Shown in pieces: positions 1 through 27,403 of a DNA stretch of 64,000 nucleotides; positions within the stretch are counted from its first letter, which is position 1, and each line of letters starts with the position of its first letter. Source of the DNA: Candidatus Poribacteria bacterium (lineage in GTDB: Bacteria; Poribacteria; WGA-4E; PCPOR2b); NCBI GenBank assembly GCA_965218095.1, contig OZ244587.1, forward strand, positions 704,001 to 768,000, in the 5' to 3' direction. The notes below the pieces were generated by a model. The model made no database searches. It was given only the letters and a program-made list of their open reading frames with translations, and was not told the DNA's origin. The position numbers and the translations under genes were made by a program.

Positions 1-178
1 AGTATAACCTGTCAAAGGTTAGGTTTCAAGGTGGGAGAATGACAATTGTAGAGCCTATCCGATTCTCGGACGAGCACTGCGAACTGGTTGGTAGGATGGT
101 GGGAACAACTCCCGATTTCATCGAAGATTCTCGCAAAGCGAGACTGGCAGCATGCTCTACAGATTCGTCGATTCGTTG

Positions 179-1366
179 TTACGCAACCAGAAAATCTCCA
201 AGGACCTCCCTTCGGGCAGGATGACGGAGTCGATCCAATGCCCTCGCCTCAAGCTGTCGAACCCGCTCTCTGGAGAGATGTAGTTTCGTTCCAATCTTCT
301 GTAAGCTGTATTCCTCCCCATCTTCCAACCCATATCTCAGACAAACGATTTGCTTCTCGCGTAGCGGTAATGCGGCTAAGGCTGATTTTACCTCCTCCAC
401 CAGGCTCCGCCGTATTGTTTCCGTTAGAGGCTCAAGCGTCTGTTCACACGCGACCAAATCCCCAAGTTCGCCCCTCGTTTCCTGACTCATGTACGCCTCC
501 AACGATGTGGTATCGGCGACTAGTTGGTCTAATAGCAGAACGCGATCCACTGTGAGCCCCGCTGCATCGGCGATCTCTTCTGGGCTGGGTTCATAGTTCC
601 CCTGTTGATGAAGCCTTTCCTCCGCTCGACTTACCCTCCGAATCTCATTGAGGAGATAAGCTGGGAGACGAATCATTCGCCCATGATTCGCAATGCCACA
701 GCCAATTGCTTGCTGCATCCACCACGAAGCATACGCCCCAAATTTGACGCCGCGCTGCCAATCAAAGTGATCTACTGCGTGGAGGAGTCCGATGTTCGCT
801 TCCTGGATGAGATCTAGCAAATCTAGTCCACGACGCTGGTATTTTTTGGCGACGCAGACCGCCAATCTTAAATTCGCCTCGACAACGCGGTTCTTAGCAG
901 CGTGCATTTCTACACCCATGATCTTTATGTGCTGCGCGAGATCCAAAAGGTATGTTTCGGTAGAGGGTAGGAAGAGTTCAGCAGTAATTTTCTGATTCAA
1001 GATAGCAGTAGATGGCGGGTTTCCCAGGTCAATGTCGGTGAGATAAATTGACAATTCCTGATAAGCTGCATCAATTCGCACCCGACACTTTCCAATCTTG
1101 ATGAAAAGGTGCATTTCTTCTTCTTGAGTTAAACGTGGAATTTTTCCAATCTGGTGAAGGTAAGTCCTCAGTACGCTGTCTTCCTGATCTGAGTAGGAGG
1201 GTTCAAACGCTTCGACGCTATCGTTAGGGGCGTCTGGAAATTGGTCAGGCGACTCGTGCATTTCTATATCCGTTGGCGCAGAACGCAACTTCAGGACTGT
1301 CAAATCGTCAACGTGTGTTCCGGTAAAGTCTTTCATCCTTGTGATTTCATTTGTCTGCTGAACCAT
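179..1366 (-). CDS. RNA polymerase sigma factor, RpoD/RpoS (sigma70 group 1/2)-like
   Basis: Region 1.2 LRTYLHQIGKIPRLT, region 2 VEANLRLAVCVAKKY...DLIQEANIGL...YASWWMQQAI, region 4 LSRERVRQLEARAL. ATG at 1366 follows GGAAGGA; the ORF track starts at 1411. Confidence 0.92.
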   Translation of the reverse strand: MVQQTNEITRMKDFTGTHVDDLTVLKLRSAPTDIEMHESPDQFPDAPNDSVEAFEPSYSDQEDSVLRTYLHQIGKIPRLTQEEEMHLFIKIGKCRVRIDAAYQELSIYLTDIDLGNPPSTAILNQKITAELFLPSTETYLLDLAQHIKIMGVEMHAAKNRVVEANLRLAVCVAKKYQRRGLDLLDLIQEANIGLLHAVDHFDWQRGVKFGAYASWWMQQAIGCGIANHGRMIRLPAYLLNEIRRVSRAEERLHQQGNYEPSPEEIADAAGLTVDRVLLLDQLVADTTSLEAYMSQETRGELGDLVACEQTLEPLTETIRRSLVEEVKSALAALPLREKQIVCLRYGLEDGEEYSLQKIGTKLHLSRERVRQLEARALDRLRHPARREVLGDFLVA

Positions 1367-1844: not shown

Positions 1845-3281
1845 CTAAATCTGACTCAGGTCTCGCTGCAATCCCAGTTCATTAATCTTACGATGCAGCG
1901 ACTGGCGCCGAATACCGATCTGCTCTGCCGTGGCCTGAATGTTCCAGTGATTTTGCTTGAGTTTGTGTTCCAAGAAGATTCGTTCAAATCCCTGTGAGGC
2001 TTCCTTAATCGTTGTGGCGTCAAGTAAGCTGCGAAAATCTGTTTCCAGCAAATCACTATTGGCAACCGCCCCATCCGCCTTCGCACTTTCATCAAAGATT
2101 TCCGGGGCCAAATCACGTGTGGAGATCTGTTGACCTGTGCATGTGAGGACCGCATATTCGATTGCTTTTTCCAATTCCCGAACATTCCCTGGCCAATGAT
2201 ACCGCTCAAATGCAGAGAGCACCGCATCGTCAAAACCAAAGGTACGCTTCTGTTCGGGGGCGTGAGCATATTTGCGAAGGAAATGCCATGCCAACAACTC
2301 AATGTCTCCTTCGCGTTCACGCAAAGGCGGTAAAGCGATTATCGGCTTCAAACGATAATAGAGATCGCTGCGAAACTTTCCTGCCGCCACAGCTCCCCAA
2401 AGGTCACGATTGGTTGCAGCGATAATCCGAACGTCAACCTGTTGCACCTTCACCCCGACGCCCTGGATCTCTTTATAGTCCAGTACACGCAGCAATTTCG
2501 GCTGCATCTCCAGACTCAAGTCACCAATCTCATCAAGGAAAATGGTTCCGCCATGTGCCTGCTGAAATTTGCCCGGACGCTGGTCAACCGATGTTGCCAC
2601 CCGTCTCCCGATTCCGAATAGCTCTGCCTCAATTAATTCCGCTGGAATTGCGCTGCAATTAACGACCTCAAAGGGACCATCACAACGCGGGCTATGCTTA
2701 TGGATGGCGCGTGCGACAAAATCCTTTCCGGTGCCGCTTTCGCCGTAGAGTAAGACATCCGTTTCTGATCGCGCAACTCGCCCAACCGTTGTCATCACTT
2801 CAATCATGACAGGGCTTTTGCCGATAATTTCATAATCCCCCGCAGAACCTATATTGTCATCCTGAGAAAGGGACTCGTGGTTTTGTTGGCTCAACACCTC
2901 TTTGACGACTTCGATCAGATGGGTGTAGTTAATCGGCTTGCTGGTATAGTCATAAATCCCTAATCCACTTGCCTCAAGCGCAGTTTCCGAAGAACTGTTG
3001 GCAGTGATTACTATGGCTTGCGGTATGGGTTGTCTCTGCTTGCTCTGCTTAAGGACTTTTAGCCCGGCTTCTCTATCCAAAATGCCCTGCGCATCCGGCA
3101 TCCAGAGATCGACCAGAAGCAAATCATAAGGCGGATTTTCGTCTAACCGTGCGATTGCCGCATCCCGATTATAGGCAAAATCGACGGCAACATCAATCGA
3201 TGCCTCCATCTTGAGTTGCTTATCGATATATTTACAAGTCGCTTGTTCATCGTCTGCGATTAAAATTCGTGCGTGTTTCAT
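1845..3281 (-). CDS. NtrC-family sigma54-interacting response regulator (REC-AAA+-Fis HTH)
   Basis: REC (IADDE, LLLVDLWMP), Walker A GESGTGKD, GGTIFLDEIG, RIIAATNRDL, FRSDLYYRL, WPGNVRELE and a C-terminal HTH. GAFTGA is replaced by RVATSV. Confidence 0.95.
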   Translation of the reverse strand: MKHARILIADDEQATCKYIDKQLKMEASIDVAVDFAYNRDAAIARLDENPPYDLLLVDLWMPDAQGILDREAGLKVLKQSKQRQPIPQAIVITANSSSETALEASGLGIYDYTSKPINYTHLIEVVKEVLSQQNHESLSQDDNIGSAGDYEIIGKSPVMIEVMTTVGRVARSETDVLLYGESGTGKDFVARAIHKHSPRCDGPFEVVNCSAIPAELIEAELFGIGRRVATSVDQRPGKFQQAHGGTIFLDEIGDLSLEMQPKLLRVLDYKEIQGVGVKVQQVDVRIIAATNRDLWGAVAAGKFRSDLYYRLKPIIALPPLREREGDIELLAWHFLRKYAHAPEQKRTFGFDDAVLSAFERYHWPGNVRELEKAIEYAVLTCTGQQISTRDLAPEIFDESAKADGAVANSDLLETDFRSLLDATTIKEASQGFERIFLEHKLKQNHWNIQATAEQIGIRRQSLHRKINELGLQRDLSQI

Positions 3282-3294
3282 GGTTCGTATCCGT

Positions 3295-3325
3295 TAATGC
3301 GTAATGCGTAAAATGTATTGCGTAA
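3295..3325 (+). repeat. Degenerate heptamer tandem repeat (TAATGCG/TAAAACG family)
   Basis: taatgcg taatgcg taaaatg tattgcg taa; the same family recurs at many intergenic sites. Confidence 0.7.
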
Positions 3326-4075
3326 GAAAACGGCGGCGGCCAACGCGTCAATCAACTCAACGGTGTCGCATGCTCTACTCGCTGATCACAGGCGTGTTCA
3401 CCACTGTCGGAAATTTTGTACTTCTTGTAATAGACTCAATTGGGTGCGTTTCTGTGTAGCAAGATGTAATAGGGGTTAAAATCCCCTAACGATAACTTGC
3501 AATCGTTAGCCTCACCTTAACTGCGTTGCCTGAAAAGGCAAGGTGGAAAGCAAAGGGAAACAGCAAATGCCCGCGAGGGAATGTAGACCTTCAGAAGGCA
3601 TGTCAGGCTAGGAACGTCATGGCTAAAACGAAAGTTGAACTGATGTAAGCCTCGTTACTACAGAACAGGTGAATCTACGAGAGGGAAACTGAAGAAGTCC
3701 ATAACTACAGCCTGTAGACAAAAGTCAAAGTGGCAAGTGCAACGTCTCCGATTTACGTTGCCAATGGAAAGTGTCTAGATAATACACTCTTTAGCAAGTC
3801 GAATGCCATCGGGGTATAGTCAGAGCCTAAAACGCTCACGACGTACATCTTGTGAGAACAGGAAAGTCCCTAAGTTCCTGTCTCAGGAATAAGGGAAAGG
3901 AGATTCAATAGGCTTATTATTAAGCCAAGCCGAATCAGAGTCATGGTTTTGAAAGGATTCTGAAATAGGTTTACCGCTACGGAGATAATCAGGATAAAAC
4001 CTGTCCACCGAGCGGATTAGATATTATCTAATAACCTAAAGGAATCCCGACAAAGCGGTTGCAAGTGGTAATATA

Positions 4076-10693: not shown

Positions 10694-13600
10694 TTAATTA
10701 TTCTGCACCACAACGACTTTCGTCCCCAATGCTCCCTCCCCTTCAACGGTGACGAAGTAAAAATTGCTGACAACCCGCCGATTCTCATCATCACGCCCGT
10801 CCCACTCGAAGACATGTCCTCCGACTGACAAGGGTTCTGATTCTTTTAGTAACCGTCGCAATCGTCCGGCTTCATTATAGATTTTAATCGTTATGTCGTC
10901 AGGACGATTTAATCGAAACGAGATCCGCGTTGAGCCCCGGCTGGGCGAAAACACGCGTGGCTGGCATGTCAGATCGGAGATGATTGTGTTCCCTTCTGCT
11001 TTTACAGCAGGCCTTGTTGTGATGGCGTACCGTCCAAGCATCGAAACCACCGTTGAGATTGTTCTGCGCTGTGTATCGATTGTCCCACCAATAGGAAGCC
11101 ATGTTTTGCCATTCCAGCGAGCGATTGTCAAGGTTTCTTTCGCTTTGGAGCGCGAAAACACTGTTGCCGTATCTTCGACGGAGAATTCGATTGTTGCCGG
11201 CTTTAGCCGGTGTAGCTGCAAGTCTTCCGGTGCAAAATCATAAACGTGAAACGTAAACTCCCCATGGGTGCGGACAGAGCCTGCTCTCGCGTAGCGGACT
11301 CCACTTCGTTGTGAAACGTGATTTGCTGCCCCCTCTGGTACTGGATTAACTGTGACGATCGTTGTCTCTAGCAGACTGTTGGGCGGGAACACAATTTTTG
11401 CACGACCGTCTTGGCTTTCTGCCATGCCCGCCCTTTCATGTGCGACCCTTTGACTGAAAAACACAATGACTCGAGCGACACTTTCATGCCCAACCTTATC
11501 TTTGACACGCAACCGCAATGTGTATAGCCTAGATAAGTTGGGTGCATCCCATAACGCCAATGTATCGTGGGTGACAGGGCTCGAAAACGCTGGCGGTTTG
11601 GAGATGGGTAGCCAGCCATCAGGAGATTCTCCGGAACCGTATTCAATGGTATATTCCTTGAAATTTCGGTCATTTGCTGTGCCGTGGATCTCAATTCTCT
11701 GCGGCAATTGTTGGTTCTCAGTCGGGGAAAGGATTTCGGCTTGCGGCAGGAGCCCATCAACAGGCACCGTAATCCTCGCCTCCACGGGACCTGCTCCCGA
11801 TTGGTCTTGAGCAATTAAGCGAATCTCATACTCGCCATCTATTTTTGGCGGCTCCCATGTTCCCAACACGCCCTCCCGTTTCGGTGCGGTAAACGTACCA
11901 ATCTCTTGCCATTCGCCTCCTGCCATGGATCTGACTTCTAAGCGATACCACGCGAGGTGTGCATCGTCCGCTGTGCCGCGAATCTCAACCGCTTCCGATA
12001 CAAATTGGCCGTCGATGGGCTGGGAAATCCGAACTTCGGGTATATTGGCATCAATCTCGACCTGCACTGAATCGTCGGCTTGATTTCCCGCCCCATCCTG
12101 AACGTCGAGCCGGAGTTCATACGTTCCTGAAATCTGGGGCGGATTCCAAATCGCCAGTGTCGCACCCCGTTTCGCCGCAATGGGCGATGGTGTAGGAATC
12201 TGCTCCGGCTCGTCGCCGGTAAGGGCACGAAACGTCAGTTGATACGCCTCGAAATGTGTATCATCTGCTGTACCAATCACCTCAATGCTTCCTGCTCCCA
12301 AAACCGCTCCATCCTTTGGGAATTCTATGACGGTTTCAGGCGGCGTGTTATCCAGGGTGACGATTTTCTCGTCCGTTGAAGGGTGTCCATAACTATCAGT
12401 TGCCTTCAGGCGTAACACGTATTCACCGTCAGGCAGTCCAGATTCATTTGTATTCCAACGCGCAATCTCCTCTTCAGTGAAACGGGACTGTCCGCGTCGG
12501 ATGATTCCTCCCGTCGACGGCTCAGAATTCGGTGGACGAGGGCGATAGTCCAAACTGAAATTTTCAATAATTGCGTCCTGAGCGGTCCCCACATCAACCG
12601 TACCGATGATAATGACCTCTCCCTTGATCGGCTGTGTGCCGTCCGGTTGCAAGATCGCAACAAACGGCTTTGCCGATTCATTTTTCAGGTTGACACTGAT
12701 AAGGGCTGACTCGCCACGATTGCCCGCAGTATCACTGACGCTCGCCCGGAGCAGTATCATACCATAGAACCTTGAAGTATTCCAGTTTATTGTGCGGTGG
12801 ACCTCTGTGTGCCCTTCCGTGACTGTTCCACGAGCGAGCTCGATCCAATCCAGATTGTTTCCGTTTTCTTCGGTGGACGCGCCCGTTTGTGGTGGGGACG
12901 TATATTCTAACACATAGTCACTTAGATGTGCATCGGCCAACTCGATTTCGATCTCGGCTTCGCCTGAAATTGAGGCGTTATCCTCTGGTTGCTTTATTTT
13001 CACCCGAGGGAGTGTGTTATCAACTTCAACGGTGACCGACTCCGCGGCACGATGTTGCCGATCAAATTGACCATTCGGAGTATCCCGTACCACCAACCGA
13101 ATCGCGTATAAATCATCGGCGACAGTTTGTGTATTCCAACGATAAAGCGTATCTCCTTTGACCGGCACCGTCGAAACGAAAGGCGGCGGCGGTGTACCCG
13201 AAACTGAATCTCCGGGAAAGATACGGATCTGATAATCCAAGAAATCCGTTTCATCCGTCGCGGTTCCCTCGATTTCATAAACGCCGCCAATCACAGCCTC
13301 CGGTTTTGGGTTGGTAATACTCACGCTCGGCGCGAGGGAGTCAATCACAAATTCTGCACTCGCCCCCACCGCATCCACGTTGCCTTCCCTATCAGTGGCA
13401 TGGACTATAAAACGATGCTGTCCTTCTACAAGGCTTGACAATAGCGCACGCTTATCAAGACCGCCATCGTCGGTGGGGGTCGGCGGTCCGTTGTCGAGTT
13501 GGTAGACATAGTGAAGTTCTCCTGTTGGCGTGCTGGCATCGCCGCCTTCAAACTTAAAGACGACGCTGGTGTCTCCGACAATTTCGCCATTTGTCGGTCC

Positions 13601-15700
13601 GTCGGTAATCCGTGTGCGAGGCGGAATCATCTCCGGATTAAAGCGGCTGACTCCGCCACTATCCTTACTGCCAAACCAGAGTCCCCCGTCCGCTTCGGTG
13701 ATTGCCGAGATGTTGTTACTGTTGAGCCCTTCGCTCGCAGTCAGTGTCCGCTCAAACCGACCGTTTTGGAATAGACTGACTCCATCAGCCGTTCCAATCC
13801 AGATCCGATTCCTTCCATCACGGTAAAGTGCCTGCACATGGTTATCCACCAATCCGTCAGTGGTTGTCAGTGAAGTGGTGAGACTTAACGTATCTTCGTC
13901 AAAAATCTGAATACCGGTATCTGTTCCGACCCAGGTCTCGCCGGTAGACGCTTCTAAAATGGTGTTAATCGAGAGTTGTTCAGGCAGGCTGTAGATTCGG
14001 TTCAAATTTAACCCGTCGTAAACCCACAGGTCGCTACCGCCTTCATCGTTCCCAACCGTTCCGAAGTACATCCGCCCCAGCGAGTCTGTGAACATAACGA
14101 CGATTGTCCGACCAATCTCCGGAAATAGATTCCTTTCCCATTGTATCCCGTCATAACGGTCTAAACCGGGGAGGTCATCTGTCGGCAAAAAACCCGTTCC
14201 GGTCCAAACATCGCCAACTGAATCGACGACGATCGATTGAACGCTATTGACGTTAATATCTGGAAGCCGAAAAATTTCCCATGAAACCCCATCGAAAACG
14301 CCAAGGCCGGCGTTAGTTCCAACCCAGATTCGCCCCCGAAAATCTTCGGCTAACGCGCGAATCTCATTTCCCGGAGGCCCACTGACCAACTCAACCCCAT
14401 TCATCGTATAGCGGCTCAATCCATTGCGCGTCCCAACCCAAAGCTCGCCCCGCCGGTCTGTCAACATCGCTGTCACACTGTCGTCGCTCAATCCGTTATC
14501 TGTAGTGATCGACTTCCATGACCGATCTGAAAAATTGACCCCATTATCGCGGGTCCCGACCCAGATCTCGCCGGTTCGTGTTTCAAACAGCGTCTGGATA
14601 TTGTTGCTTGCTAAACTATTTGCTCTTGTCAGATGACGCCAATGCCCGAAATCGCGGAGCACCGCAGGAGAGAATTGTGACGGCGTGCGAAATTGGCTAA
14701 CGCCGGCAGTTGTCCCGATCCAGATCGTTGCCTCCCTATCGCTCATTATGGATTGCACATTGTTTCCGATTAAGAGCCCATTCTGCGCCGTTACAACATG
14801 CCAGGTCAAACCGTCGTAAACCGCCGCGCCCCCCGTTGTGCCGACCCAGAGATTGCCGATGTGGTCTTCCAAAATTGCCTGCACGTCACCATTCGGTAAG
14901 CCATCGTTCACGCTAAAAATTTCCCACCCCACGCCATCGAAACGGCTGACAAGGTTCCCACTTTGGAGACGGTTGCTCCGTGAAAGTCCAAACCAGAGGT
15001 CCCCAACCTCATCCTCATAGATGACCTGTACGCCTTGATCGAGTTGTCCAACTGCCGCGTCATTGACAGGACACCAAATTTCGCCGTCAAACCAGTTGAC
15101 GCCAAGCGGCGTCCCGATCCAGATTTCACCATTTTGGCGCTGGATCATCGTCACAACACGCGCTCCGATACCGATCAATCCCCTTTCACCCGTATCGTGT
15201 TGCAGCCAGTCAATCTGTTGCCGTGAATCGTTCCATACACCTCGATAGACCCCCGCGTTTGTCGCAACCCAGATAAAGCCCGCAACGCCTTCAAAAACCT
15301 CGAAAACATCATTGTCTTGGGGGCCCCCGTCCGACATGCCGGCCTCGTGCCAGAAACCGTCCAAACGGCTCAAACCCTTGTCTGTCCCCAACCAGATTTG
15401 CCCGAATCGATCTTCAGTGATGGTTCTAACGTTGTTGCTGCTCAGACCATCGCCGATTCGCGTGAAATTTCGCCATTGGAAGTTTTGCTGGGCAAATGTG
15501 ACGCCGGGCGTCAGGAAGGAAAGAATAAGGAAAAGCGTGAAAGGTGACAGGTGAAACGTGAAGCGTAAAGTGTATTGGGAAAATAAGAGGAGGCGGAAAT
15601 GAGGAAATCGGGAGATGAAAAAATAGAGAAATGCGCTCATTGTGTAGATGTCCAAATTAACGACGCTGATCGCTTTGTTAGCATTTGGAGTTTTGGTCAA
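10694..15700 (-). CDS. Large secreted protein: two-component-regulator propeller (Reg_prop) repeats, Y_Y_Y-like domain, Ig-like repeats, C-terminal FlgD-Ig
   Basis: Repeated DGLxxNxVxxIxEDxxGxIWxGTxxG, multiple DNTxPxVxIxxP Ig repeats, C-terminal PRVFSP...IKIYNEAGRLRR...WDGRDDENRRV. Start uncertain (15640-15700). Confidence 0.85.
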   Translation of the reverse strand: MTKTPNANKAISVVNLDIYTMSAFLYFFISRFPHFRLLLFSQYTLRFTFHLSPFTLFLILSFLTPGVTFAQQNFQWRNFTRIGDGLSSNNVRTITEDRFGQIWLGTDKGLSRLDGFWHEAGMSDGGPQDNDVFEVFEGVAGFIWVATNAGVYRGVWNDSRQQIDWLQHDTGERGLIGIGARVVTMIQRQNGEIWIGTPLGVNWFDGEIWCPVNDAAVGQLDQGVQVIYEDEVGDLWFGLSRSNRLQSGNLVSRFDGVGWEIFSVNDGLPNGDVQAILEDHIGNLWVGTTGGAAVYDGLTWHVVTAQNGLLIGNNVQSIMSDREATIWIGTTAGVSQFRTPSQFSPAVLRDFGHWRHLTRANSLASNNIQTLFETRTGEIWVGTRDNGVNFSDRSWKSITTDNGLSDDSVTAMLTDRRGELWVGTRNGLSRYTMNGVELVSGPPGNEIRALAEDFRGRIWVGTNAGLGVFDGVSWEIFRLPDINVNSVQSIVVDSVGDVWTGTGFLPTDDLPGLDRYDGIQWERNLFPEIGRTIVVMFTDSLGRMYFGTVGNDEGGSDLWVYDGLNLNRIYSLPEQLSINTILEASTGETWVGTDTGIQIFDEDTLSLTTSLTTTDGLVDNHVQALYRDGRNRIWIGTADGVSLFQNGRFERTLTASEGLNSNNISAITEADGGLWFGSKDSGGVSRFNPEMIPPRTRITDGPTNGEIVGDTSVVFKFEGGDASTPTGELHYVYQLDNGPPTPTDDGGLDKRALLSSLVEGQHRFIVHATDREGNVDAVGASAEFVIDSLAPSVSITNPKPEAVIGGVYEIEGTATDETDFLDYQIRIFPGDSVSGTPPPPFVSTVPVKGDTLYRWNTQTVADDLYAIRLVVRDTPNGQFDRQHRAAESVTVEVDNTLPRVKIKQPEDNASISGEAEIEIELADAHLSDYVLEYTSPPQTGASTEENGNNLDWIELARGTVTEGHTEVHRTINWNTSRFYGMILLRASVSDTAGNRGESALISVNLKNESAKPFVAILQPDGTQPIKGEVIIIGTVDVGTAQDAIIENFSLDYRPRPPNSEPSTGGIIRRGQSRFTEEEIARWNTNESGLPDGEYVLRLKATDSYGHPSTDEKIVTLDNTPPETVIEFPKDGAVLGAGSIEVIGTADDTHFEAYQLTFRALTGDEPEQIPTPSPIAAKRGATLAIWNPPQISGTYELRLDVQDGAGNQADDSVQVEIDANIPEVRISQPIDGQFVSEAVEIRGTADDAHLAWYRLEVRSMAGGEWQEIGTFTAPKREGVLGTWEPPKIDGEYEIRLIAQDQSGAGPVEARITVPVDGLLPQAEILSPTENQQLPQRIEIHGTANDRNFKEYTIEYGSGESPDGWLPISKPPAFSSPVTHDTLALWDAPNLSRLYTLRLRVKDKVGHESVARVIVFFSQRVAHERAGMAESQDGRAKIVFPPNSLLETTIVTVNPVPEGAANHVSQRSGVRYARAGSVRTHGEFTFHVYDFAPEDLQLHRLKPATIEFSVEDTATVFSRSKAKETLTIARWNGKTWLPIGGTIDTQRRTISTVVSMLGRYAITTRPAVKAEGNTIISDLTCQPRVFSPSRGSTRISFRLNRPDDITIKIYNEAGRLRRLLKESEPLSVGGHVFEWDGRDDENRRVVSNFYFVTVEGEGALGTKVVVVQNN

Positions 15701-15932
15701 CAGGCTCTTGAAGTGTGCATCCGAGAATCAGACAAATAGTTGGAAATGACAACCGTCGCTTCCTTACCCAGATATTGCTTTGCGAGAAATAGAGAGCGAG
15801 ACCTGTTTTTCATTGCGCCGCTACGCTCCTTCTATTTATAGTTTGTATCAAATGACCCCATGAGCTAAACTATGGCGAACCCTATAAATAAGTAGACATT
15901 TTCTTATATTGCTGGTATCCTATAGTTATTAT

Positions 15933-17041
15933 GAGGGGTGTGCATAAATATAGTTGACATAATCAAGCCAAAAGGGTTTCCTATTGTTATCATAGCAAAA
16001 GGAGCCCCAATATGGTACAAAGACCAATGTTGGCTGATTATGTCACTCTTATTATGCAACTCTTTGAGCAGTTTATGCAACACCGTATTGACAAACCAGG
16101 TGTCACACACGCAAAACCATTGACATATTCAACCACCTCGTTTATCATTTTCTTCATGTTGATGCAGTTTCACGGCATCTATGGCTTCAAAACGCAATGG
16201 CGGTGGCTAATCAATCACCCAGAAGTGTTACAAATGCTGGGGTGGCAACAGCCCCCTCATCGAACCACGATTGCACGTCGCTATAAGGCATTATATGAAG
16301 TGATAGAGGTATTTGTATTGTTTATCGGTCAGTATGCCACTGACTTGTCCCAACAATTCAACTTGGCTCATCTGGTAGCCGACAAAAGTTTATTTAAGGC
16401 ACGAGGACCCGTCTGGCATCAAACTGACCGCAAAGCAGGAAAAGTACCTAAACATCTACGCAACCTCGACACCGATGCCACGTGGAGCAAGAGTGGTTAT
16501 CATGGCTGGGTCTATGGCTACGGACTTCACATTATCTGCACACAAGGTGCGTTCCCAACACTGATAACTGTGCACCGTGCGTCGGTCTCCGAAAGTTGGG
16601 CGATAGATGCTAAAGCGTCTGAGATTCTGACACAACTTTCACCGCAGACACTCACTGCCGATGATGCCTATACCCAAGCAGACCGTATCCGTCGTTGGGC
16701 GAAGGCACAAGTCGCTTTGATTACCCCGGCACTTAGATGGACAAAGGGACGGTTTGCCAAGGCGTATCATCGATTTATCAACCAACCCAAGCAGCGTCTC
16801 TGTTTAAGCAAACGTCGCAGTTCGGTTGAACCGTTGTTTGACTTGATTGCTAAAGTGATAGGCGCCACTCCTCAACAGAAGCAGTTACCGGTCAAGGGGT
16901 TTTTCAATGTACGCTGTTGTTTAGCTATCGGGGTGTTATCAGTGCAAGTGGCTATGATTGCCAATGCCATATGGAAGTTACCTGCTCGCAATATCTCTCA
17001 TATGGCGGCTGTTTTCCAATGAACTACTATGCACACCCCTC
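15933..17041 (+). mobile_element. IS element (DDE_Tnp_1 type, IS982/IS5-like) inserted at the start codon of an IS630 transposase
   Basis: TIRs GAGGGGTGTGCATA (15933-15946) and TATGCACACCCCTC (17028-17041); 9-bp TSD AGTTATTAT at 15924-15932 and 17042-17050. Confidence 0.9.
16012..17022 (+). CDS. DDE transposase, apparently intact
   Basis: PHRTTIARR, VADKSL, DTDATW...GWVYGYGLH, TADDAY and RSSVEPLF motifs; RBS AGGAG. Confidence 0.88.
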   Translation: MVQRPMLADYVTLIMQLFEQFMQHRIDKPGVTHAKPLTYSTTSFIIFFMLMQFHGIYGFKTQWRWLINHPEVLQMLGWQQPPHRTTIARRYKALYEVIEVFVLFIGQYATDLSQQFNLAHLVADKSLFKARGPVWHQTDRKAGKVPKHLRNLDTDATWSKSGYHGWVYGYGLHIICTQGAFPTLITVHRASVSESWAIDAKASEILTQLSPQTLTADDAYTQADRIRRWAKAQVALITPALRWTKGRFAKAYHRFINQPKQRLCLSKRRSSVEPLFDLIAKVIGATPQQKQLPVKGFFNVRCCLAIGVLSVQVAMIANAIWKLPARNISHMAAVFQ

Positions 17042-17048
17042 AGTTATT

Positions 17049-17852
17049 ATGGCCTATTCTTTAGATTTACGCAAACGCGTCTTAGATTTTATCGCAGCTG
17101 GCGGTGGCAAGACCGAAGCGAGCCGCCGTTTTTCCGTCGCCCGCTCAACGCTGTATAAGTGGTTGAATGCGCCTGACCCGCTCAAACGTCAGAAACCAGG
17201 GCCCCGTCGCCCGCGAACCCTTGACCCCGATGCGCTGAGAAAACATGTCGCTGATTTTCCAGACCAGACCTACGCCGAGCGCGCAGCTCATTTTGGTGTG
17301 TCAAAGTCTTGTATCGGGTATGGGCTGAAAAATATCGGTTGCACCCGAAAAAAAAGTCTCGGATATAAGGAGCAATGCGCTGAAAAACGACAAGCGTATC
17401 TTCAGCAACTCGCACAAGTGAAAGCCTCTGGTAAGTCTTTTGTTTATGTCGATGAGAGTGGGTTTCGAGACGAAAGTTATAGACGTTATGGGTATGCACC
17501 CAAAGGGGAAAAAGTCTTTGGACTTATCTCAAGCCAACGCACCCGGACAGCGACACTTATTGCGGCACGGGTGTTCAAAGGGAGCTGCAAAGCGGTAGAT
17601 TTCAATGACTGGTTAGCTGAACAGTTATGTCCACGTTTGACTTCAAAACAGGTTGTAATCCTTGATAATGCGCGGCTTCACAAAACACCTCGGACCCGAG
17701 AGTTGATAGAGGCTTCAGGAGCGAGTCTGATGTTCCTACCGCCTTATTCTCCAGATTACAATCCGATTGAACACGATTTTGCCAATATCAAGCGATACCG
17801 AGAATATCACCCCGAAACCACACTTCACGATATTATTCAAATGTACCATTAA
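17049..17852 (+). CDS. IS630-family transposase
   Basis: MAYSLDLRKRV HTH, VYVDESGF, VILDNARLHK, FLPPYSPDYNPIE. In frame across the A8 run; element ends are degenerate. Confidence 0.9.
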   Translation: MAYSLDLRKRVLDFIAAGGGKTEASRRFSVARSTLYKWLNAPDPLKRQKPGPRRPRTLDPDALRKHVADFPDQTYAERAAHFGVSKSCIGYGLKNIGCTRKKSLGYKEQCAEKRQAYLQQLAQVKASGKSFVYVDESGFRDESYRRYGYAPKGEKVFGLISSQRTRTATLIAARVFKGSCKAVDFNDWLAEQLCPRLTSKQVVILDNARLHKTPRTRELIEASGASLMFLPPYSPDYNPIEHDFANIKRYREYHPETTLHDIIQMYH

Positions 17853-17905
17853 TTCTAAGATCTACCATAAAAGGAGATGGTATTGCCATCAACTACAATC
17901 CACTC

Positions 17906-18718
17906 ATGGAGGTCAATATGAAACCACAAAGCAATACAGCCTACGGTATCAACCGTCTACAATCAAAGACCGCAAGGGCAGCCATCATTCAGAAGATTTC
18001 ATCAGACTTTAATCTAATGCCACTGATTGCCGAAGCCTACTATAAACAGATTGCTTCCTACTTTGCTCAACATGCCGAAATTGAACTCACGTCAGGCCAA
18101 ATCTGCTATGAGGCAGTCGCAGCCGATGAACCGGCAGGCAAACATATCGCGTTAGCGAAAAAAGTCTCATGTCAACTCACTCTCAATGATGTCCAAACTG
18201 ACCTTGAGATGTTAGCCGATTATGGGCTTTCTGGACTCAGACGCCATCGAATTCTCCGATTAACCAAACAAGCCTATGACCAAGATGCCCTGCTCAGCTA
18301 TGAAGATTTAGCGGTGCTATTAACCACCAGTCCAGCGACCGTCAAGCGCGACATTCGACAGTTGAAACAGGACGGTTACTTTGTTATGACTCGCGGTGCC
18401 AAACATGACATGGGGCCTGGCATCTCTCATAAGACTCAGATTCTGGAATTGTACTTCAAAGGGTATCAGTTCACTGAAATTGAGCAAAAGACTAATCATA
18501 CCCAACGAGCGGTCTGGCGATACTTGCGCGATTTCACACAGGTAGCAAGCCTCCATCATCAAGGCTTTCCAAAGGGACAGATACGGCTCATTACGCATCT
18601 ATCGGACCGACTAATTCGGGAGTATCTCTTGCTATATGATGAGTACCAACAAACACAACGAATGACTCAACTCCTTCACCCGGAACCGGTTGATGCGGAA
18701 AAGGGGAACCCCTCATGA
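17906..18718 (+). CDS. DUF1670-like protein (HTH-containing, unknown function)
   Basis: RILRLTKQAYDQDALLSYEDLAVLLTTSPATVKRDI...TRGAKHDMGPGISHKTQILELY...HTQRAVWRYLRDF. Confidence 0.8.
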   Translation: MEVNMKPQSNTAYGINRLQSKTARAAIIQKISSDFNLMPLIAEAYYKQIASYFAQHAEIELTSGQICYEAVAADEPAGKHIALAKKVSCQLTLNDVQTDLEMLADYGLSGLRRHRILRLTKQAYDQDALLSYEDLAVLLTTSPATVKRDIRQLKQDGYFVMTRGAKHDMGPGISHKTQILELYFKGYQFTEIEQKTNHTQRAVWRYLRDFTQVASLHHQGFPKGQIRLITHLSDRLIREYLLLYDEYQQTQRMTQLLHPEPVDAEKGNPS

Positions 18719-19607
18719 GTAAACCCTTGACTCGAACCGAAGTCAACGAGAAGAAATTCAGACGCCTCAATGATAAATCCCTGCAATAGCTACTAATTCA
18801 TCGCTTTATCAATTCTTACGGTTATGACAAAGGAGAAGTCACGGCGGCTGTCATTGTTGATGACATTGTCAAAACCATTGAAGGCTATTTCTTGATTGCC
18901 CTCCCCCTTGAGAAACTCGCCACAGGAGACCAAATCCCTAATCAGCGAATGCTCAGTTATGGGCAATTGGTCTGGATGGCTGTGCCGATTGATGAATACC
19001 CACAAAAAGGGAAGTCAATCGTCAAAACCGCTATGAAGCCGGTTGTTCTGACCTACCTCGCTTCTGAGGATATTGAATCCTTTCGCAACGGTTTTACTTC
19101 CCGGCAACTCAGAATCAATTGATTAGTCCGATGGTGTTATCAAGCCTATGACCAAGGCGCATTATTGACCCAACTCGACCTAGCTGTGTTGCTCAATATC
19201 TGTGATGCCATCGTCAGCGACTATGTCAATGAGTGGCAAAAAAATAGTGGAAAACTCTTGCCCACCCGGGGCAATATCCATGATTTATCGGGAGCGATTA
19301 CCCACAAGAAAGAGATTGTTACCCTCTATCTCCAAGGGCATCTGCTGCCAAAACCAGCCACTCTAAAGAAGCGGTTGACCGATACATTCGCGATTATGAG
19401 TCCGTTAAGACGGTTCGTGCCGCTACGGAGGATATTGACAAAATCTCTCAGATTACCCGGCTCTCCAAACGCGTCATCTCTCAATATCTTGACCTGATTC
19501 CTCAACATTCGCTTGATGACATGGACGCTAACTTAGCAACCGAATCAGAAAGCTGTAAAGATGCCAACACCCTGTTCCGTTCCGAACCTACAGGAGACCC
19601 CCAATGA
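18715..19607 (+). pseudogene. Second DUF1670-like gene, inactivated
   Basis: ATGA-coupled start at 18715; in-frame TAG (18787) and TGA (19120); frameshift near 19345. Motifs QAYDQGALLTQLDLA, PTRGNIHDLSGAITHK, HSKEAVDRYIRDY. Confidence 0.8.
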
Positions 19608-19674
19608 TAAAATCGGACAAACGTTGCTTAGCGTTTTGCCCAACAAAACATCGTAATTTTACTTGAAGATTGGT

Positions 19675-19703
19675 TTGACACCCGCTATCTTTTTTGCTAT
19701 ACT
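19675..19703 (+). promoter_or_regulatory. Near-consensus sigma70 promoter pointing out of the DUF1670 element
   Basis: TTGACA-17 bp-TATACT. Confidence 0.7.
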
Positions 19704-19833
19704 TCGTTACGCTTATATCCAAGCGTATCCATTTCTCGAAGGAGATGCGAGTTCACCCAATCCAACCCGCTCATGGGTGATGGCTGGAAGGCAATAGACA
19801 TCAGCATTCCAACCATCATCTGGTCATTTGATA

Positions 19834-22236
19834 CTATTTCAGAATCAGCATTTTCTGTGTCGCAACAAAATCACCAGCTTTGAGTACATAAAAGTACACG
19901 CCGCTGGCAGCGTGCTCTCCCAATTGAGTACGTCCGTCCCAATAGGCCGCTCTTTCTTTGGTGATGTACTGTCCCGGTGGTTTCAGACCGAGCTCTAAAG
20001 TGCGCACCAACTGCCCCGCCATATTGTAAATCTCAATCAATACGGAGGAACCCTCCGCCAACTCGTAAGGCATCCAAACGTCCGGATTGAACGGATTCGG
20101 GTAACTTTGTAGCAACCGAGTACGGATTGGGGCCGCCGGAATATTCATCTCAGGCTTGAAGGTGGGGGTAAAGCCATTCAGTCCGATGCTCGGTGTGCCC
20201 ATGATGCCAAGCGCGTTCACAGGCACAACGGCGTAATAGTAGGTGACACTCTGTGGATTAAATGAGGGACTGCTTAGATCGAATTGCGCCCGGTCCAGAT
20301 CGACATCTTGAAATATCGTTGTGTCTTCAAAGCGGGTATCCGTCGCGTTGACACGCCTGACAATGTTGATGTCGCTGTCAGGGATGCCGTTCTCATCACG
20401 GTCTGCGGCATTCAAAACCTCCGCCGCGCTCTGGAGTGGCTGCGGGTCGTCGGTATTGATGAACGCGGCGTGCCGCTTGCGGACAATAACTATCTCACGA
20501 ATATCTGTCAGATCTTCAAGCTCCCATTGTACAAGCACGCCGTTGTTGCCTTCCGAAACAGTCGGCGTTGAGAGCTTCCCAGCCGGTGGACGACCGGCCA
20601 TATAGCTCACAGAACCACCGAAATAGCCGCCACCGGGGATAACGACATGTTCGATATCCGGGCGGACGTTGATTAGGATCAGCGTAATCTTCTCAATCTC
20701 GCCCCCAAAATCTTTGAACGTGATCTGCGCTTCCTGAGAACGATGATAAGTGAACGCCTCTCGAACTTCAGTTATCCCATCGCGTCTTTCAACGATAAAC
20801 TTCGCGCCCCAACCGCGCAAACCGGTAATATCGTGCCGATCCAATTCCTGCTGAATTGCATTGCGATCCGCGAGGCTGAGAGCATCTATGTCAATCGGGG
20901 CGAGGTCTGTGCCATCAACCTTAACCGCGAATTCCTTCATCACAACACCAAGCGCAGGTTCAAAGACAATATAGCGAGCCGAGAAGGGTTCTGGCATCGC
21001 CTCTGAATCAAAATCAACGCGGACGGGATAGGCGTTATGCACATCAGTCGGATGAATGGCGACCGGCGGGAAACGGTGCCCGTTGAAGTAGTGCTGCTTG
21101 TCATCACGGTCATCAGTAAAGTAATTCCACTCGGTGAAGGTCTTAAACACCTCAACAAGCGTTGTACCGTGATCTGTGAACACCTGCGAAAAGTTACCGT
21201 ATTCGCGGAAGCTGCCTTCTGTTGTATTTCCATAAAACTGCCTGATGATATCGACATCAAATCGCTCCGCCATATAAAGCGCCCAGATCACAGCCGCGTA
21301 CTCGTGCAAACCAACGCGGCTATCAAGGGCAATGTCAGGCTGACGCAAAAAAATGTCAAGCTGTCTGGCATAGTAGTTATACGCATCGGTCTCACCAATC
21401 TCATCGGGGTCTGGGATATCGTCGAGATCGTCAATCCGTCCGCCGTCATATACCTTCGACTCAATCCATGTGGCAGAGGCTTCCATAAACCATGTTGGCA
21501 TTCGCGCATTATAGCCAAACTGAACGCCGTGGATGAACTCATGGGCGCACGTCGTTTCAATGAATCGGATGCCTTCAGATCTTCCGAAAAAGTCATATAT
21601 ACGGGAATTGATCGCGAAATAGGGGCCAAAGGTCGCAACGGTTGATAACACCCGCCCATTGTACCAGTCTACTGTTGTGAAGCCAAGCGCAGGAAACATG
21701 AACAGATATACGTCGTATTTATGATTGCCACCATTTTCAGCCACCCAAAAATCGTCAAACGGCTGCTTAAAGCCCATCAGATCCACTTCAACATGGAAAG
21801 AGCGCTCCATCGCCTCCGCACAAATATCGACGAAATCCGGGACGCCGTTCATCGGATTGAGATCTTCAAGCGGCGGTGCATTGAGGCCGACAGTGGTATA
21901 GTGGAACCGAAAGTGCGGTGTGTCAAACTTCTTGGGCAGGTAAACAGAACCGTAGGCGCTGCCGGGCAGCCCCGGGCGCAGGAAAATCCCCTGAAACTCC
22001 CGTTGATAGATCGCTGGAAGGTGATTCCAGTTTCTGGCGAGGATATTGAAGCTGTCCGTAAAGCACTTCTCAATTTCGCTGGGCGCGTAACTCGGTTTGA
22101 GGTTAATATACTTTCGGACAGTCCGAATTGCGCTATGCAGTTCCGGATCGGGGGGGAGTGCGTCAACAAATAAGGGCGTAAAGACGAAAAATCCGACGGT
22201 CAATAAAATAAATAAGCACAATCTCAAGCGGTTCAC
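19834..22236 (-). CDS. Secreted zinc metalloprotease-like protein (MXAN_6640-like) with C-terminal FlgD-Ig sorting domain
   Basis: Signal peptide; HFRFHYT, NGVPDFVD, CAHEFIHGVQ (HExxH), WFMEASATWIE. Tail LLQSYPNPFNP...YWDGR...SGVYFY...KMLILK. Confidence 0.82.
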   Translation of the reverse strand: MNRLRLCLFILLTVGFFVFTPLFVDALPPDPELHSAIRTVRKYINLKPSYAPSEIEKCFTDSFNILARNWNHLPAIYQREFQGIFLRPGLPGSAYGSVYLPKKFDTPHFRFHYTTVGLNAPPLEDLNPMNGVPDFVDICAEAMERSFHVEVDLMGFKQPFDDFWVAENGGNHKYDVYLFMFPALGFTTVDWYNGRVLSTVATFGPYFAINSRIYDFFGRSEGIRFIETTCAHEFIHGVQFGYNARMPTWFMEASATWIESKVYDGGRIDDLDDIPDPDEIGETDAYNYYARQLDIFLRQPDIALDSRVGLHEYAAVIWALYMAERFDVDIIRQFYGNTTEGSFREYGNFSQVFTDHGTTLVEVFKTFTEWNYFTDDRDDKQHYFNGHRFPPVAIHPTDVHNAYPVRVDFDSEAMPEPFSARYIVFEPALGVVMKEFAVKVDGTDLAPIDIDALSLADRNAIQQELDRHDITGLRGWGAKFIVERRDGITEVREAFTYHRSQEAQITFKDFGGEIEKITLILINVRPDIEHVVIPGGGYFGGSVSYMAGRPPAGKLSTPTVSEGNNGVLVQWELEDLTDIREIVIVRKRHAAFINTDDPQPLQSAAEVLNAADRDENGIPDSDINIVRRVNATDTRFEDTTIFQDVDLDRAQFDLSSPSFNPQSVTYYYAVVPVNALGIMGTPSIGLNGFTPTFKPEMNIPAAPIRTRLLQSYPNPFNPDVWMPYELAEGSSVLIEIYNMAGQLVRTLELGLKPPGQYITKERAAYWDGRTQLGEHAASGVYFYVLKAGDFVATQKMLILK

Positions 22237-27305: not shown

Positions 27306-27403
27306 GTACCTGGACCAAATTTTCGCATCTTCTTAGCCGGTCAGAAACCGAGTTTTTCTGAAAAACTCGGTTTCTATGCATCCAAAAACTTACGTCCAAG
27401 TAC
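27306..27403. repeat. MITE/REP-like palindromic element
   Basis: Terminal IR GTACCTGGAC / GTCCAAGTAC around a perfect palindrome AGAAACCGAGTTTTT-ctg-AAAAACTCGGTTTCT. Confidence 0.6.

Follow-up and report, generated by a model that had tools for sequence, protein, structure and literature searches.

Positions 15838-19837 of the window (the whole stretch of 64,000 nt of Candidatus Poribacteria DNA analyzed here) hold one copy of an insertion sequence (IS) of ~2.0 kb, split by nested ISs, and we observe that the unit running from ATAG to CTAT moves as a whole, duplicating 2 bp of its target. This is a real IS family for which we found no prior description; the literature search returned no paper on this element type, and the libraries used gave it no transposase name. 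On balance, we consider it probable that the window holds a copy, disabled by the nested ISs, of a family whose machinery is a pair of DUF1670 proteins.

Boundaries and ends of the window copy

The earlier note had bounded the element at 15845 and 19834, but the true ends lie 7 nt further out on the left (15838, ATAG…) and 3 nt further out on the right (19837, …CTAT; Table 1). The perfect 21-bp inverted repeat (IR) that it described is present, with the left copy GTATCAAATGACCCCATGAGC (15845-15865) exactly complementing GCTCATGGG (19769-19777) together with GTCATTTGATAC (19823-19834), the two right-end pieces being separated by 45 hairpin-forming nt (19778-19822). A repeat search also returned an unsplit 19-nt repeat with 17/19 complementary positions (15845-15863 versus 19816-19834), and the window contains two occurrences of the 12-mer TATCAAATGACC, one per end and on opposite strands (0.33 matches expected from shuffles, with 4/100 shuffles reaching two).

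Table 1. Features of the element copy and its target gene in the window
Feature	Position	Strand	Evidence or remark
Left TT duplication copy	15836..15837	.	TT on both sides in 53/53 complete copies; empty sites
Left end to IS630 insertion point	15838..15872	+	Terminal IR ATAGTTTGTATCAAATGACC, box B CATGAGC
Nested IS630-family element, TA-flanked	15873..17867	+	NF033545 E 4.9e-36, 124.7 bits, cut-off 100
IS5/IS982-like DDE element, inside IS630 element	15932..17042	+	15-nt perfect IR; PF01609 E 7.2e-7
ORF1, DUF1670, 266 aa	17918..18718	+	GGAGG ahead of 17918; homologs 266 aa
ORF2, DUF1670 paralog	18715..19607	+	Start overlaps ORF1 stop (ATGA); pseudogene in window
Sigma-70-type promoter TTGACA-17 nt-TATACT	19675..19703	+	11/12 matches; TG before -10
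Right end	19769..19837	+	Box B complement GCTCATGGG (19769-19777), hairpin 19778-19822, terminal IR ending …GGTCATTTGATACTAT
Right TT duplication copy	19838..19839	.	First two bases of target's last Lys codon, minus strand
Target gene, 800 aa, ending …KMLILK*	19834..22236	-	T9SS type A sorting domain, TIGR04183 E 1.2e-8

The nested ISs are real as well, and the remainder of ~2 kb that had been deduced by removing them is matched by an uninterrupted copy of 2003 bp elsewhere in the same genome. The IS630-family element, with its transposase ORF at 17049-17852 and 7 copies in the genome, is no part of the DUF1670 element, and the IS5/IS982-like element inside it (ORF 16012-17022) has about 40 genomic copies.

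Both noncoding ends contain two sequence boxes, A (TATCAAATGACC) and B (CATGAG). The boxes lie side by side in the left end, and a conserved hairpin comes between them in the right end. This hairpin is present in the right end only, and 86% of its hairpin cells are paired, against 28-44% when the structure is slid. Matching changes in both IRs (GTCTCATATGACC and GGTCATATGAGAC) were found in lineages L098 and L104 (one genome, 3 copies). The right-end promoter is conserved and points toward the right tip, its -10 element being found in 21/21 lineages, and a possible second promoter (TTGTAT-17-TAAACT, read by eye only) overlaps the terminal IR within the left end.

Copies, target sites and duplication

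We found four copies in the element's own genome, >99% identical, at different sites and one of them uninterrupted. With this genome counted, 9/41 related genomes are positive, and related Poribacteria carry 1 to 10 near-identical copies each (one relative reaching about 10), with >99.7% identity among up to 5 copies within one genome (four genomes compared). Both ends were found at 49/56 Poribacteria loci, 21 sequence lineages were distinguished, and ATAG…CTAT ends flanked by TT on both sides are common to 53/53 complete copies. The family occurs in Poribacteria, several FCB-group phyla, Omnitrophota, and one archaeal order; an Omnitrophota contig has the same gene layout at 31% ORF1 identity, and 16/61 genomes of the archaeal order have matches, the full-length ones being adjacent pairs. 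One contig in run X3 resembles a derivative of ~140 bp consisting of the two ends only, and none of the contigs showed a circle or tandem junction.

In genes that end in a T9SS type A sorting domain, the element inserts into the last codon, directly after its second base. In the window, the target gene scores 34.8 bits against TIGR04183 (cut-off 23), and its stop codon, together with 1 nt of its last codon, is element sequence; the stop codon (19834-19836) falls inside the element, whose right end had been described as abutting it. The last 4 nt of the right tip complete the last codon at its third base and add TAG, and since the tip brings exactly what the insertion displaces, the target protein is unchanged. 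A target duplication, which the earlier note had not found obvious, is present as TT on either side. Its suggestive CTATTT likeness at both ends arises because the left flank (15832-15837) retains the target's original Lys codon and TAG, read on the minus strand, while the right tip brings a new one.

Sorted by site, the 53 copies comprise 38 at CTD-type gene ends, 14 in REP-like hairpin loops, which one Poribacteria subclade uses instead, and 1 elsewhere. The last Lys codon is hit in all 38 CTD-type copies, the left side keeping the original AAR and TAG, TAA, or TGA, and 5/34 M-h-h-h-K-stop sites in the own genome are followed by an element right end (4 copies and 1 remnant). TIGR04183 scores above its cut-off in 3/3 Poribacteria target genes and in 7/7 targets from other phyla, where the relatives (including Gemmatimonadota, Eisenbacteria, Zixibacteria, and Melioribacteraceae) likewise sit at the ends of genes with T9SS sorting domains. 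In two lineages of relatives the flanking dinucleotide is CG, and the tip completes an Arg codon followed by TAG.

Empty sites show that TT is a 2-bp target duplication. Unoccupied REP loops have the sequence TTTTTTCTTC, occupied ones TTTTTT-element-TTCTTC, and a CTD site reads …TTTTGAAGTAAGA… in a related genome, compared with …TTTTGAA-element-AAGTAAGAG when occupied. At one copy (c2), 2005 nt, equal to the element length plus TT, are missing from contigs of runs X1 and X3 (one contig per run, at a likeness threshold of 90%).

Three generic features of an insertion sequence are found here, namely, terminal IRs, target duplication with empty sites, and a multicopy, patchy distribution. The earlier note had proposed a comparison of the flanks of DUF1670 loci, and these indeed show IRs, multicopy status, and empty sites; homologous pairs are bounded by IRs and have empty sites, known transposases were not found within homologous elements, and no second element shares these IRs (5 genomes searched). 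A chance arrangement or an ordinary, immobile chromosomal regulator locus, for which only the modest shuffle figure of the 12-mer pair in the window could be cited (4/100), is refuted by the multicopy occurrence, the identical ends in 53/53 copies, the empty sites, and the patchy distribution, and its probability is negligible.

The invariance of the dinucleotide raises the idea of conservative site-specific recombination with a 2-nt crossover and a circular intermediate (serine-type or IS110/IS607-like), the dinucleotide being a shared core. TT recurs at unrelated targets (CTD ends, REP loops, and one odd site) in 53/53 copies, CG is found in both Arg-codon lineages, targeting is highly site specific, REP hairpins included, and the complete conserved right-end promoter reads across the tip. 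We nevertheless regard this as rather unlikely, as neither a serine-recombinase nor a DEDD domain was detected, no circle junction was seen among contigs, and the fixed target codon could by itself explain the invariant dinucleotide; moreover, 50 copies gave no recurrent match of at least 8 nt between end and target (about 20 isolated matches, all different).

DUF1670 proteins and the search for a catalytic domain

ORF1, for which an alternative ATG lies at 17906, is a full-length member of PF07900 (DUF1670; E 7.9e-63, 212.2 bits, gathering cut-off 25). The earlier note had described a translationally coupled pair of DUF1670 paralogs; the two genes do overlap, but ORF2 is not intact in the window, where it carries a TAG (18787-18789), a TGA (19120-19122), and a 13-nt deletion near 19345, its pieces matching PF07900 at 8.7e-8 and 1.4e-18. 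Intact ORF2 in relatives has 297-302 aa and is also a full-length PF07900 member. The TGA and the 13-nt deletion are common to all four copies of the own genome, and the TAG is present in 3/4, its site being deleted in the fourth. These four ORF2-broken copies occupy four sites, one of them polymorphic in nature, indicating that ORF2 may be dispensable or that the copies were moved by another factor or by a master copy since lost.

ORF1 and ORF2 match their closest cross-domain orthologs at E 1.6e-47 and 5.3e-45, respectively, and each other at about 1e-27, which points to an ancient duplication. Median dN/dS values over 16 lineages (0.11 for ORF1 and 0.09 for ORF2) indicate that both genes evolve under purifying selection. 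In some lineages ORF1 and ORF2 are fused into one gene, the order being ORF1-type then ORF2-type in 6/6 two-repeat fusion proteins. No further ORF of at least 80 aa is common to the 8 elements listed, and the DUF1670 pair is the only conserved coding content of the element across bacterial phyla and archaeal relatives. Searches returned 817 (ORF1) and 1,534 (ORF2) homologs; PF07900 has no assigned function, and a literature search found no paper mentioning DUF1670.

The pair could also be passenger cargo (e.g., two regulators) in a nonautonomous element moved by the transposase of another IS. The genome is crowded with ISs (about 40 IS5-like and 7 IS630-family copies, and an 853-bp IS with 145 BLAST rows), and the ~140-bp contig of run X3 looks like a derivative reduced to the two ends. 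This is very improbable in view of IRs unlike those of the nested ISs, an IR 12-mer confined to DUF1670 elements and their remnants (5 genomes searched), a duplication of TT or CG versus the TA of IS630, and a two-gene content kept across phyla and domains under purifying selection.

To our knowledge, every accepted IS family has a recognizable catalytic protein (DDE, DEDD, HUH, serine, or tyrosine). AlphaFold models of the two proteins (pLDDT 90 and 87) are helical with a single beta-hairpin, and the predicted structures and two fold searches yielded only winged-helix and homeodomain-like helix-turn-helix (HTH) modules. The Foldseek search that the earlier note had suggested gave no enzyme fold, with nothing against the PDB at E <= 0.001, and VIA-align on the whole model returned mostly HTH or winged-helix DNA-binding domains (best Z of 6.6), the N-terminal domain alone giving a best Z of 4.7. 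In a profile search of PDB sequences, no match fell below E 0.0017. In 72/72 aligned and 17/17 longer (fused) homologs, the Pfam families detected were limited to DUF1670 and HTH, with HTH_23, HTH_28, and HTH_29 matching 30, 26, and 24 of the 72, respectively. For a DDE/D domain there was no Pfam or NCBIfam match and no transposase among the fold-search results; DEDD and HUH (Y1_Tnp) families had no match in the element proteins or the 72 homologs, and for serine recombinases no resolvase domain matched, HTH_7 alone being found in 2/72. The earlier note had seen no DDE, HUH, Tyr, or Ser recombinase motif in the pair; by Pfam, only DUF1670 and HTH families were detected, and the fold searches listed no transposase. 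As for the suggestion of a new transposon type with a DUF1670 enzyme, the mobile element is real, but only HTH modules were found where the enzyme was expected. The motifs singled out for that role (QAYDQ, TRG..HD..HK, and H...V.RY) sit in the wing and helices of HTH modules in the predicted models, and each can be explained as an ordinary HTH feature. Residues conserved in both paralogs are D95, R114, D130, R159, D164, H171-K172, H194, and R201-Y202, the position before H171 being Ser in 56/72 and Thr in 16/72 homologs.

Since no known catalytic fold is detectable, either a new active site is formed from paralog-conserved residues or a host enzyme is borrowed, and we slightly prefer the former. 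That the DUF1670 proteins are only recognition or targeting subunits (TnsD/TniQ or IS3 OrfA-like), a host or unlinked enzyme doing the cutting and joining, seems to us possible but somewhat unlikely. It would fit the finding of DNA-binding folds only, the N-terminal beta-hairpin with its conserved EPAGKP tip and weak IHF/HU-like alignment (Z 4.6, rmsd 12 A), and the spread of ORF2-defective copies in the own genome. The helper enzyme would, however, be needed in Poribacteria, FCB-group phyla, Omnitrophota, and an archaeal order alike. Furthermore, the five genomes hold no second element with these IRs, an enzyme-domain fusion is absent from the 17 longer homologs and 10 fused proteins scanned, and Xer-type host recombinases are not known to produce a 2-bp duplication.

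Proposed mechanism and known systems

We propose that the ORF1 and ORF2 proteins assemble into a hetero-oligomer of HTH modules, which would bind a two-part site at each end (boxes A and B), pair the ends, recognize the target, and make or direct breakage with a 2-nt stagger and joining. The right-end promoter may serve to express the genes once a circular or tandem junction has formed, or may produce a small RNA. In type II topoisomerases and Spo11, which cleave with a 2-nt stagger, the tyrosine sits on a winged helix, and the nucleophile might similarly be carried on an HTH here. Our tentative suggestion, which we advance at less than even confidence, is that this DUF1670 hetero-oligomer is a DNA transposase or recombinase of a new class, composed solely of HTH-type modules and directed through protein-DNA recognition, with single-nucleotide precision, to a conserved gene end that the element's own tip repairs.

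This demonstrably mobile, widespread element with only two HTH-type proteins of an uncharacterized Pfam family implies either new transposition chemistry or a new mode of host-enzyme borrowing, in a two-gene, 2-kb system. We know of no IS that inserts in a last codon while bringing the missing base and a stop, and the element offers a compact natural case of harmless, sequence-addressed insertion at T9SS cargo genes. DUF1670 gains a biological context, and the family explains many orphan contigs of ~2 kb in metagenome assemblies.

IS630/Tc1-mariner elements have short terminal IRs, a TA duplication, a DDE/D domain, and two HTH modules with a basic linker. The DUF1670 element shares the short terminal IRs, the duplication of a fixed dinucleotide, and a DNA-binding part in which a basic linker connects two HTH modules, but differs in having no detected DDE/D domain, in duplicating TT (53/53 Poribacteria copies) or CG (two other lineages) instead of TA, and in its two separate paralogous proteins and codon-precise targeting. 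Unlike IS200/IS605 elements (HUH Y1, subterminal hairpins, no IRs), it has true terminal IRs.

Insertion into REP or attC hairpins is known for IS1397/ISKpn1 (IS3 family) and IS110/IS1111 elements, and a preprint reportedly deals with a seeker RNA of IS1111 elements. Similarly, one DUF1670 subclade inserts into REP-like palindromes, at the loop (14 copies), and the element has a conserved noncoding region and promoter at one end. In contrast to these ISs, it has terminal IRs and no detected DDE or DEDD transposase, most of its lineages target a coding end, and it shows no guide-like complementarity as in IS110/IS1111 (50 copies, matches of at least 8 nt only).

Conserved gene ends serve as harmless landing sites in the TnsD pathway of Tn7 at attTn7 and for tRNA-gene islands. 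The DUF1670 element likewise lands harmlessly at a conserved gene end and, like tRNA-targeting islands, carries a replacement for the displaced gene part. It differs from both in being a 2-kb element with two HTH proteins only, in inserting inside the last codon and not downstream, where it replaces just 1 nt and the stop codon, and in targeting the members of a large paralogous gene family.

Element boundaries, target duplication and empty sites

The DUF1670 element is a real insertion sequence family that is active in nature and has no recognisable transposase. Alignment of the four copies in its own genome with copies in related Poribacteria genomes places the true ends at 15838 (ATAGTTTGTATC…) and 19837 (…GATACTAT) of the window, with TT on either side. 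The earlier note had described a terminal inverted repeat (IR) split at the right end by a 45-nt spacer, and direct reading of the window bears this out: GTATCAAATGACCCCATGAGC (15845-15865) at the left end complements exactly GCTCATGGG (19769-19777) plus GTCATTTGATAC (19823-19834), the two right-end pieces being separated by a palindromic stretch of 45 nt. A repeat search of the window gave the unsplit version, a 19-nt repeat with 17/19 complementary positions, and the 12-mer TATCAAATGACC occurs twice in the window, both times at the element ends (expected 0.33; at least two matches in 4 of 100 shuffles).

Both ends are present in 49 of the 56 Poribacteria loci fetched with ORF1, the first of the two overlapping DUF1670 paralogs (six of the remainder have no right end within reach and one has no left end). 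Together with the four own copies, this makes 53 complete copies, all of which read TT/ATAG…CTAT/TT. We identify TT as the target duplication because of three observations. The uninterrupted loop of REP-like palindromes, an alternative target, reads TTTTTTCTTC, and occupied loops read TTTTTT/element/TTCTTC. An empty site in a related genome (…ATGCTTATTTTGAAGTAAGAACGG…) corresponds to the occupied site …ATGCTTATTTTGAA/element/AAGTAAGAGTATC in G018. Finally, one contig in each of sequencing runs X1 and X3 joins position 2096 of locus L010, which holds own-genome copy c2, to position 4102, skipping 2005 nt, that is, the element (2003) and one TT; these two contigs have a shorter side of 34 nt at a likeness threshold of 90%, and come from runs whose library type is not recorded. 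No circle or tandem junction was seen among the contigs compared with the locus, and contigs cannot reveal rare forms. Among archaeal relatives, a 21-nt IR brackets the gene pair in one locus, which runs into the contig end, and nothing consistent was found as element ends in the other loci.

The transposon reading of the earlier note is thus supported by multiple copies, fixed ends, the 2-bp duplication and empty sites; its proposed check of DUF1670 loci for IRs, multicopy status and empty sites found all of them, the empty sites at both REP-like palindromes and gene ends. The note had seen no obvious duplication and had called CTATTT only suggestive; a duplication does exist, of 2 bp (TT), and lies outside the corrected ends.

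The nested insertion sequences that it had claimed inside the window copy were identified by profile matches, IRs and copy counts (see the table). The IS5/IS982-like element splits the IS630-family element, which itself lies inside the DUF1670 element, so that nesting is three deep. BLAST of the interval between the ends against the whole genome gave about 40 copies of the inner element, 7 of the IS630-type element and 4 of the outer one. The IS5/IS982-like copies are >99% identical, and one of them also interrupts DUF1670 copy c3. An uninterrupted outer copy, for which the note had advised searching in related genomes, exists in the own genome as c2 (2003 bp). The window insertion and its nested elements form 4 kb between a 1668-aa gene and the upstream gene on the same strand, and may have broken any co-transcription of the two.

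Features of the window, of derived copies and of the ORF1 model
Feature	Position	Context	Evidence or detail
IS630-family element	window 15873-17867	within left end of DUF1670 element	TA-flanked
IS630-family transposase	window 17049-17852		NF033545, E 4.9e-36
IS5/IS982-like element	window 15932-17042		1111 bp; 15-nt perfect IR; PF01609, E 7.2e-7
1668-aa gene	window 10694-15700, minus strand	start 136 bp left of element	
CTD gene	window 19834-22236	upstream of 1668-aa gene	
REP-like palindrome	window 27346-27372		one copy
853-bp IS	G000 (own genome) 5725474-5726326	in copy c4	terminal GGTTCTGTTGACATTT repeats; 145 genomic BLAST rows
L011, right-end remnant	G000 about 665840-665882		26 nt
L115, decayed element	G018 3142025-3143569	interior replaced by a 311-aa gene	TIGR01784, 78.3 bits (cut-off 52.1)
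ORF1 model, part 1	residues 1-95		three helices and one long beta-hairpin
ORF1 model, part 2	residues about 100-165		winged helix
ORF1 model, part 3	residues about 169-217		three-helix homeodomain/LuxR-like HTH
ORF1 model, part 4		C-terminal to HTH	helical tail

Target choice in Poribacteria and other phyla

A script assigned the 53 copies to 3' ends of genes with a T9SS type A sorting domain (TIGR04183; CTD ends, 29 copies, including an atypical peptide at L084), REP loops (14) and other sites (10). Nine of these ten, read by eye, are …KM[LV][IT][RLW]K-stop ends with AAR and the stop kept on the left side, indicating that the CTD pattern of the script was too strict; the final tally is 38 CTD-type gene ends, 14 REP loops and one copy elsewhere (L077). 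At all 38 gene ends, the original last Lys codon and stop are retained in the left flank (AAATAG, AAGTAG, AAATAA, AAGTAA or AAGTGA), and the new end of the target gene consists of the duplicated AA, an A and TAG from the element tip. The target protein is therefore unchanged, and the insertion habit is target-sparing and codon-precise. TIGR04183 scored over its cut-off in all three Poribacteria target genes checked. The own genome has only 34 ATG-NTN-NTN-NTN-AAR-stop sites, and the element's right end follows five of them (the four copies and a 26-nt remnant). REP targeting is limited to one subclade, with 89-96% identity among its members; a close relative of this subclade (L074) sits at a CTD end. 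For the palindrome AACCGAGTTTT…AAAACTCGGTT, the copy number is 70 in G010, 35 in G004, 270 in G018 and 28 in the own genome.

Through a 64%-identical homolog we found elements in Gemmatimonadota, Zixibacteria, Eisenbacteria, Fibrobacteraceae, Melioribacteraceae (three copies) and one further MAG, which retain the IR core GGTCAxxTGAxAC and a right tip of CTAT or CTAC. All seven neighbouring gene ends translated there score over the TIGR04183 cut-off and terminate at the element. Copies from Gemmatimonadota and Melioribacteraceae are flanked by TT (Lys), and those of two lineages by CG; in the latter, CGC-TAG or CGG-TGA is left behind and CG+A/G+TAG reconstituted. This indicates that the duplicated dinucleotide follows the target codon. 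N-TAG is a constant of the right tip, and the left tip is variable (ATAG, CATG, TAAG, TACG, TACA, AAAG); the Zixibacteria copy has an uncertain left boundary.

Derived copies and non-coding ends

All four own copies share a TGA and a 13-nt deletion in ORF2, and three of them a TAG, the corresponding stretch of c4 having been lost to an 853-bp IS that replaced about 300 bp of the element. ORF2 is thus intact in none of the four, yet c2 is polymorphic in nature. Right-end pieces of about 165 nt in G018 and G041 still close CTD genes, as does the remnant L011, whose remainder is gone and which still gives the stop codon of a …KMVILK-stop gene; G044 holds a left-end piece. The gene within L115 belongs to the Rpn family (recombination-promoting nuclease/putative transposase). 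In run X3, a contig (depth 49.9; L010 joint 2121 to 4022) runs from the terminal ~30 nt of the right end through 33 further nucleotides into the outermost ~72 nt of the left end, and may represent a MITE-like derivative of ~140 bp.

The right end contains a predicted promoter, TTGACA-17-TATACT with a TG extension (11/12 consensus matches), directed over the terminal ~135 nt (~103 nt for the short variants); its -10 is present in 21/21 lineages and its -35 (TTGACA or TTGGCA) in six of seven aligned. The short variants L081, L094, L098 and L104 (1896-1909 bp) lack ~30 nt between this promoter and box B (CATGAG/CTCAT), the second part of a candidate two-part site, and L081 is additionally without the second long frame. 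The CTCAT of box B is invariant across 18 aligned right ends. A proposed two-hairpin structure, as RNA or as DNA, is 79% paired, versus 28-44% when slid, and its pairing was reached by 9 of 500 shuffles. Pairing amounts to 66% in the first hairpin, where 5/6 pairs show both-side changes; the terminal hairpin has 86% of cells paired (the slid range being that of the whole structure) and both-side changes in 1/10 pairs, hence little covariation. The RNAalifold consensus of the 18 right ends is poor (-1.38 kcal/mol), Rfam gave only a chance-level match on an intact copy (E 0.37), and no guide-like match of at least 8 nt between non-coding ends and targets recurred among 50 copies. RNA-library contigs span parts of the element at depths similar to those of the flanks, which we do not take as proof of transcription.

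The DUF1670 pair and its possible part in transposition

Intact elements consist of a leader of ~71-83 nt, ORF1 (265-270 aa), ORF2 (285-302 aa), whose start overlaps the ORF1 stop (ATGA), and a non-coding right end of 200-230 nt; both ORFs match PF07900. The identical plan recurs on a 2026-bp Omnitrophota contig at 31% ORF1 identity. In an archaeal order, 16 of 61 genomes have matches, the full-length ones being adjacent pairs, mostly at contig ends. Within a control set, Methanosarcina acetivorans also gave a match to PF07900. Poribacteria and archaeal-type proteins match like with like (ORF1, E 1.6e-47; ORF2, E 5.3e-45) more strongly than ORF1 matches ORF2 (only ~1e-27), which makes the pair ancient. 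Across 16 lineages, ORF1 has a median dN/dS of 0.11 (85 pairs) and ORF2 one of 0.09 (119 pairs), L081 being left out as it does not have two long frames. Two-repeat fusions keep the order ORF1-type then ORF2-type in 6/6 cases, and three-repeat proteins of 930-952 aa also occur. The family comprises 817 homologs of ORF1 (E <= 1e-3) and 1534 of ORF2 (E <= 1e-5); 1227 representatives of 50%-identity clusters match ORF1, and many members lie on ~2-kb contigs. A tblastn search of a plasmid collection with ORF1 gave zero matches.

From a 72-sequence alignment, AlphaFold2 modelled ORF1 at a pLDDT of 90.1 as a chain of four parts (see the table). Foldseek of the predicted structure, as the earlier note had proposed, gave nothing in the PDB at E <= 0.001; VIA-align (best Z 6.6) returned mostly NiaR/BirA-type winged helices, LuxR/sigma-r4 domains and TrpR/Mor-like domains. 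For the N-terminal domain modelled alone (pLDDT 87.4), the highest Z was 4.7; the lowest E from profile searching of PDB sequences was 0.0017, and the ESM Atlas gave weak leads only (score 0.80), all of them small HTH proteins from archaea. DUF1670 and HTH are the only Pfam families in 72/72 homologs and 17/17 longer homologs. Fold searches and Pfam thus give DNA-binding modules only, in agreement with the note, which saw no DDE, HUH, Tyr or Ser recombinase motif.

Residues GQ, D95, R114, Q122, D130, R159-G160, D164, H171-K172, H194, R201-Y202 and Y236 are identical in four reference proteins covering both paralogs and both domains of life, with R159 in 72/72 aligned homologs and Y202 in 70/72. 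They could form an active site; most of them equally suit ordinary HTH positions. Membership of the tyrosine recombinases on the strength of R…HK…H…RY was considered and rejected, as neither fold list contains a recombinase and the motif suits a homeodomain-like HTH. We tentatively favour catalysis of transposition by the DUF1670 pair itself, a reading we hold to be quite possible though short of probable. That the proteins recruit another enzyme for the reaction appears somewhat less likely.

Full-text search found no paper on DUF1670 or PF07900, and titles and abstract openings, with ISfinder outside the comparison, described no element of this kind. The known systems with which we compare the element are IS630, IS1397, IS110/IS1111, IS607, Tn7 and topoisomerases.
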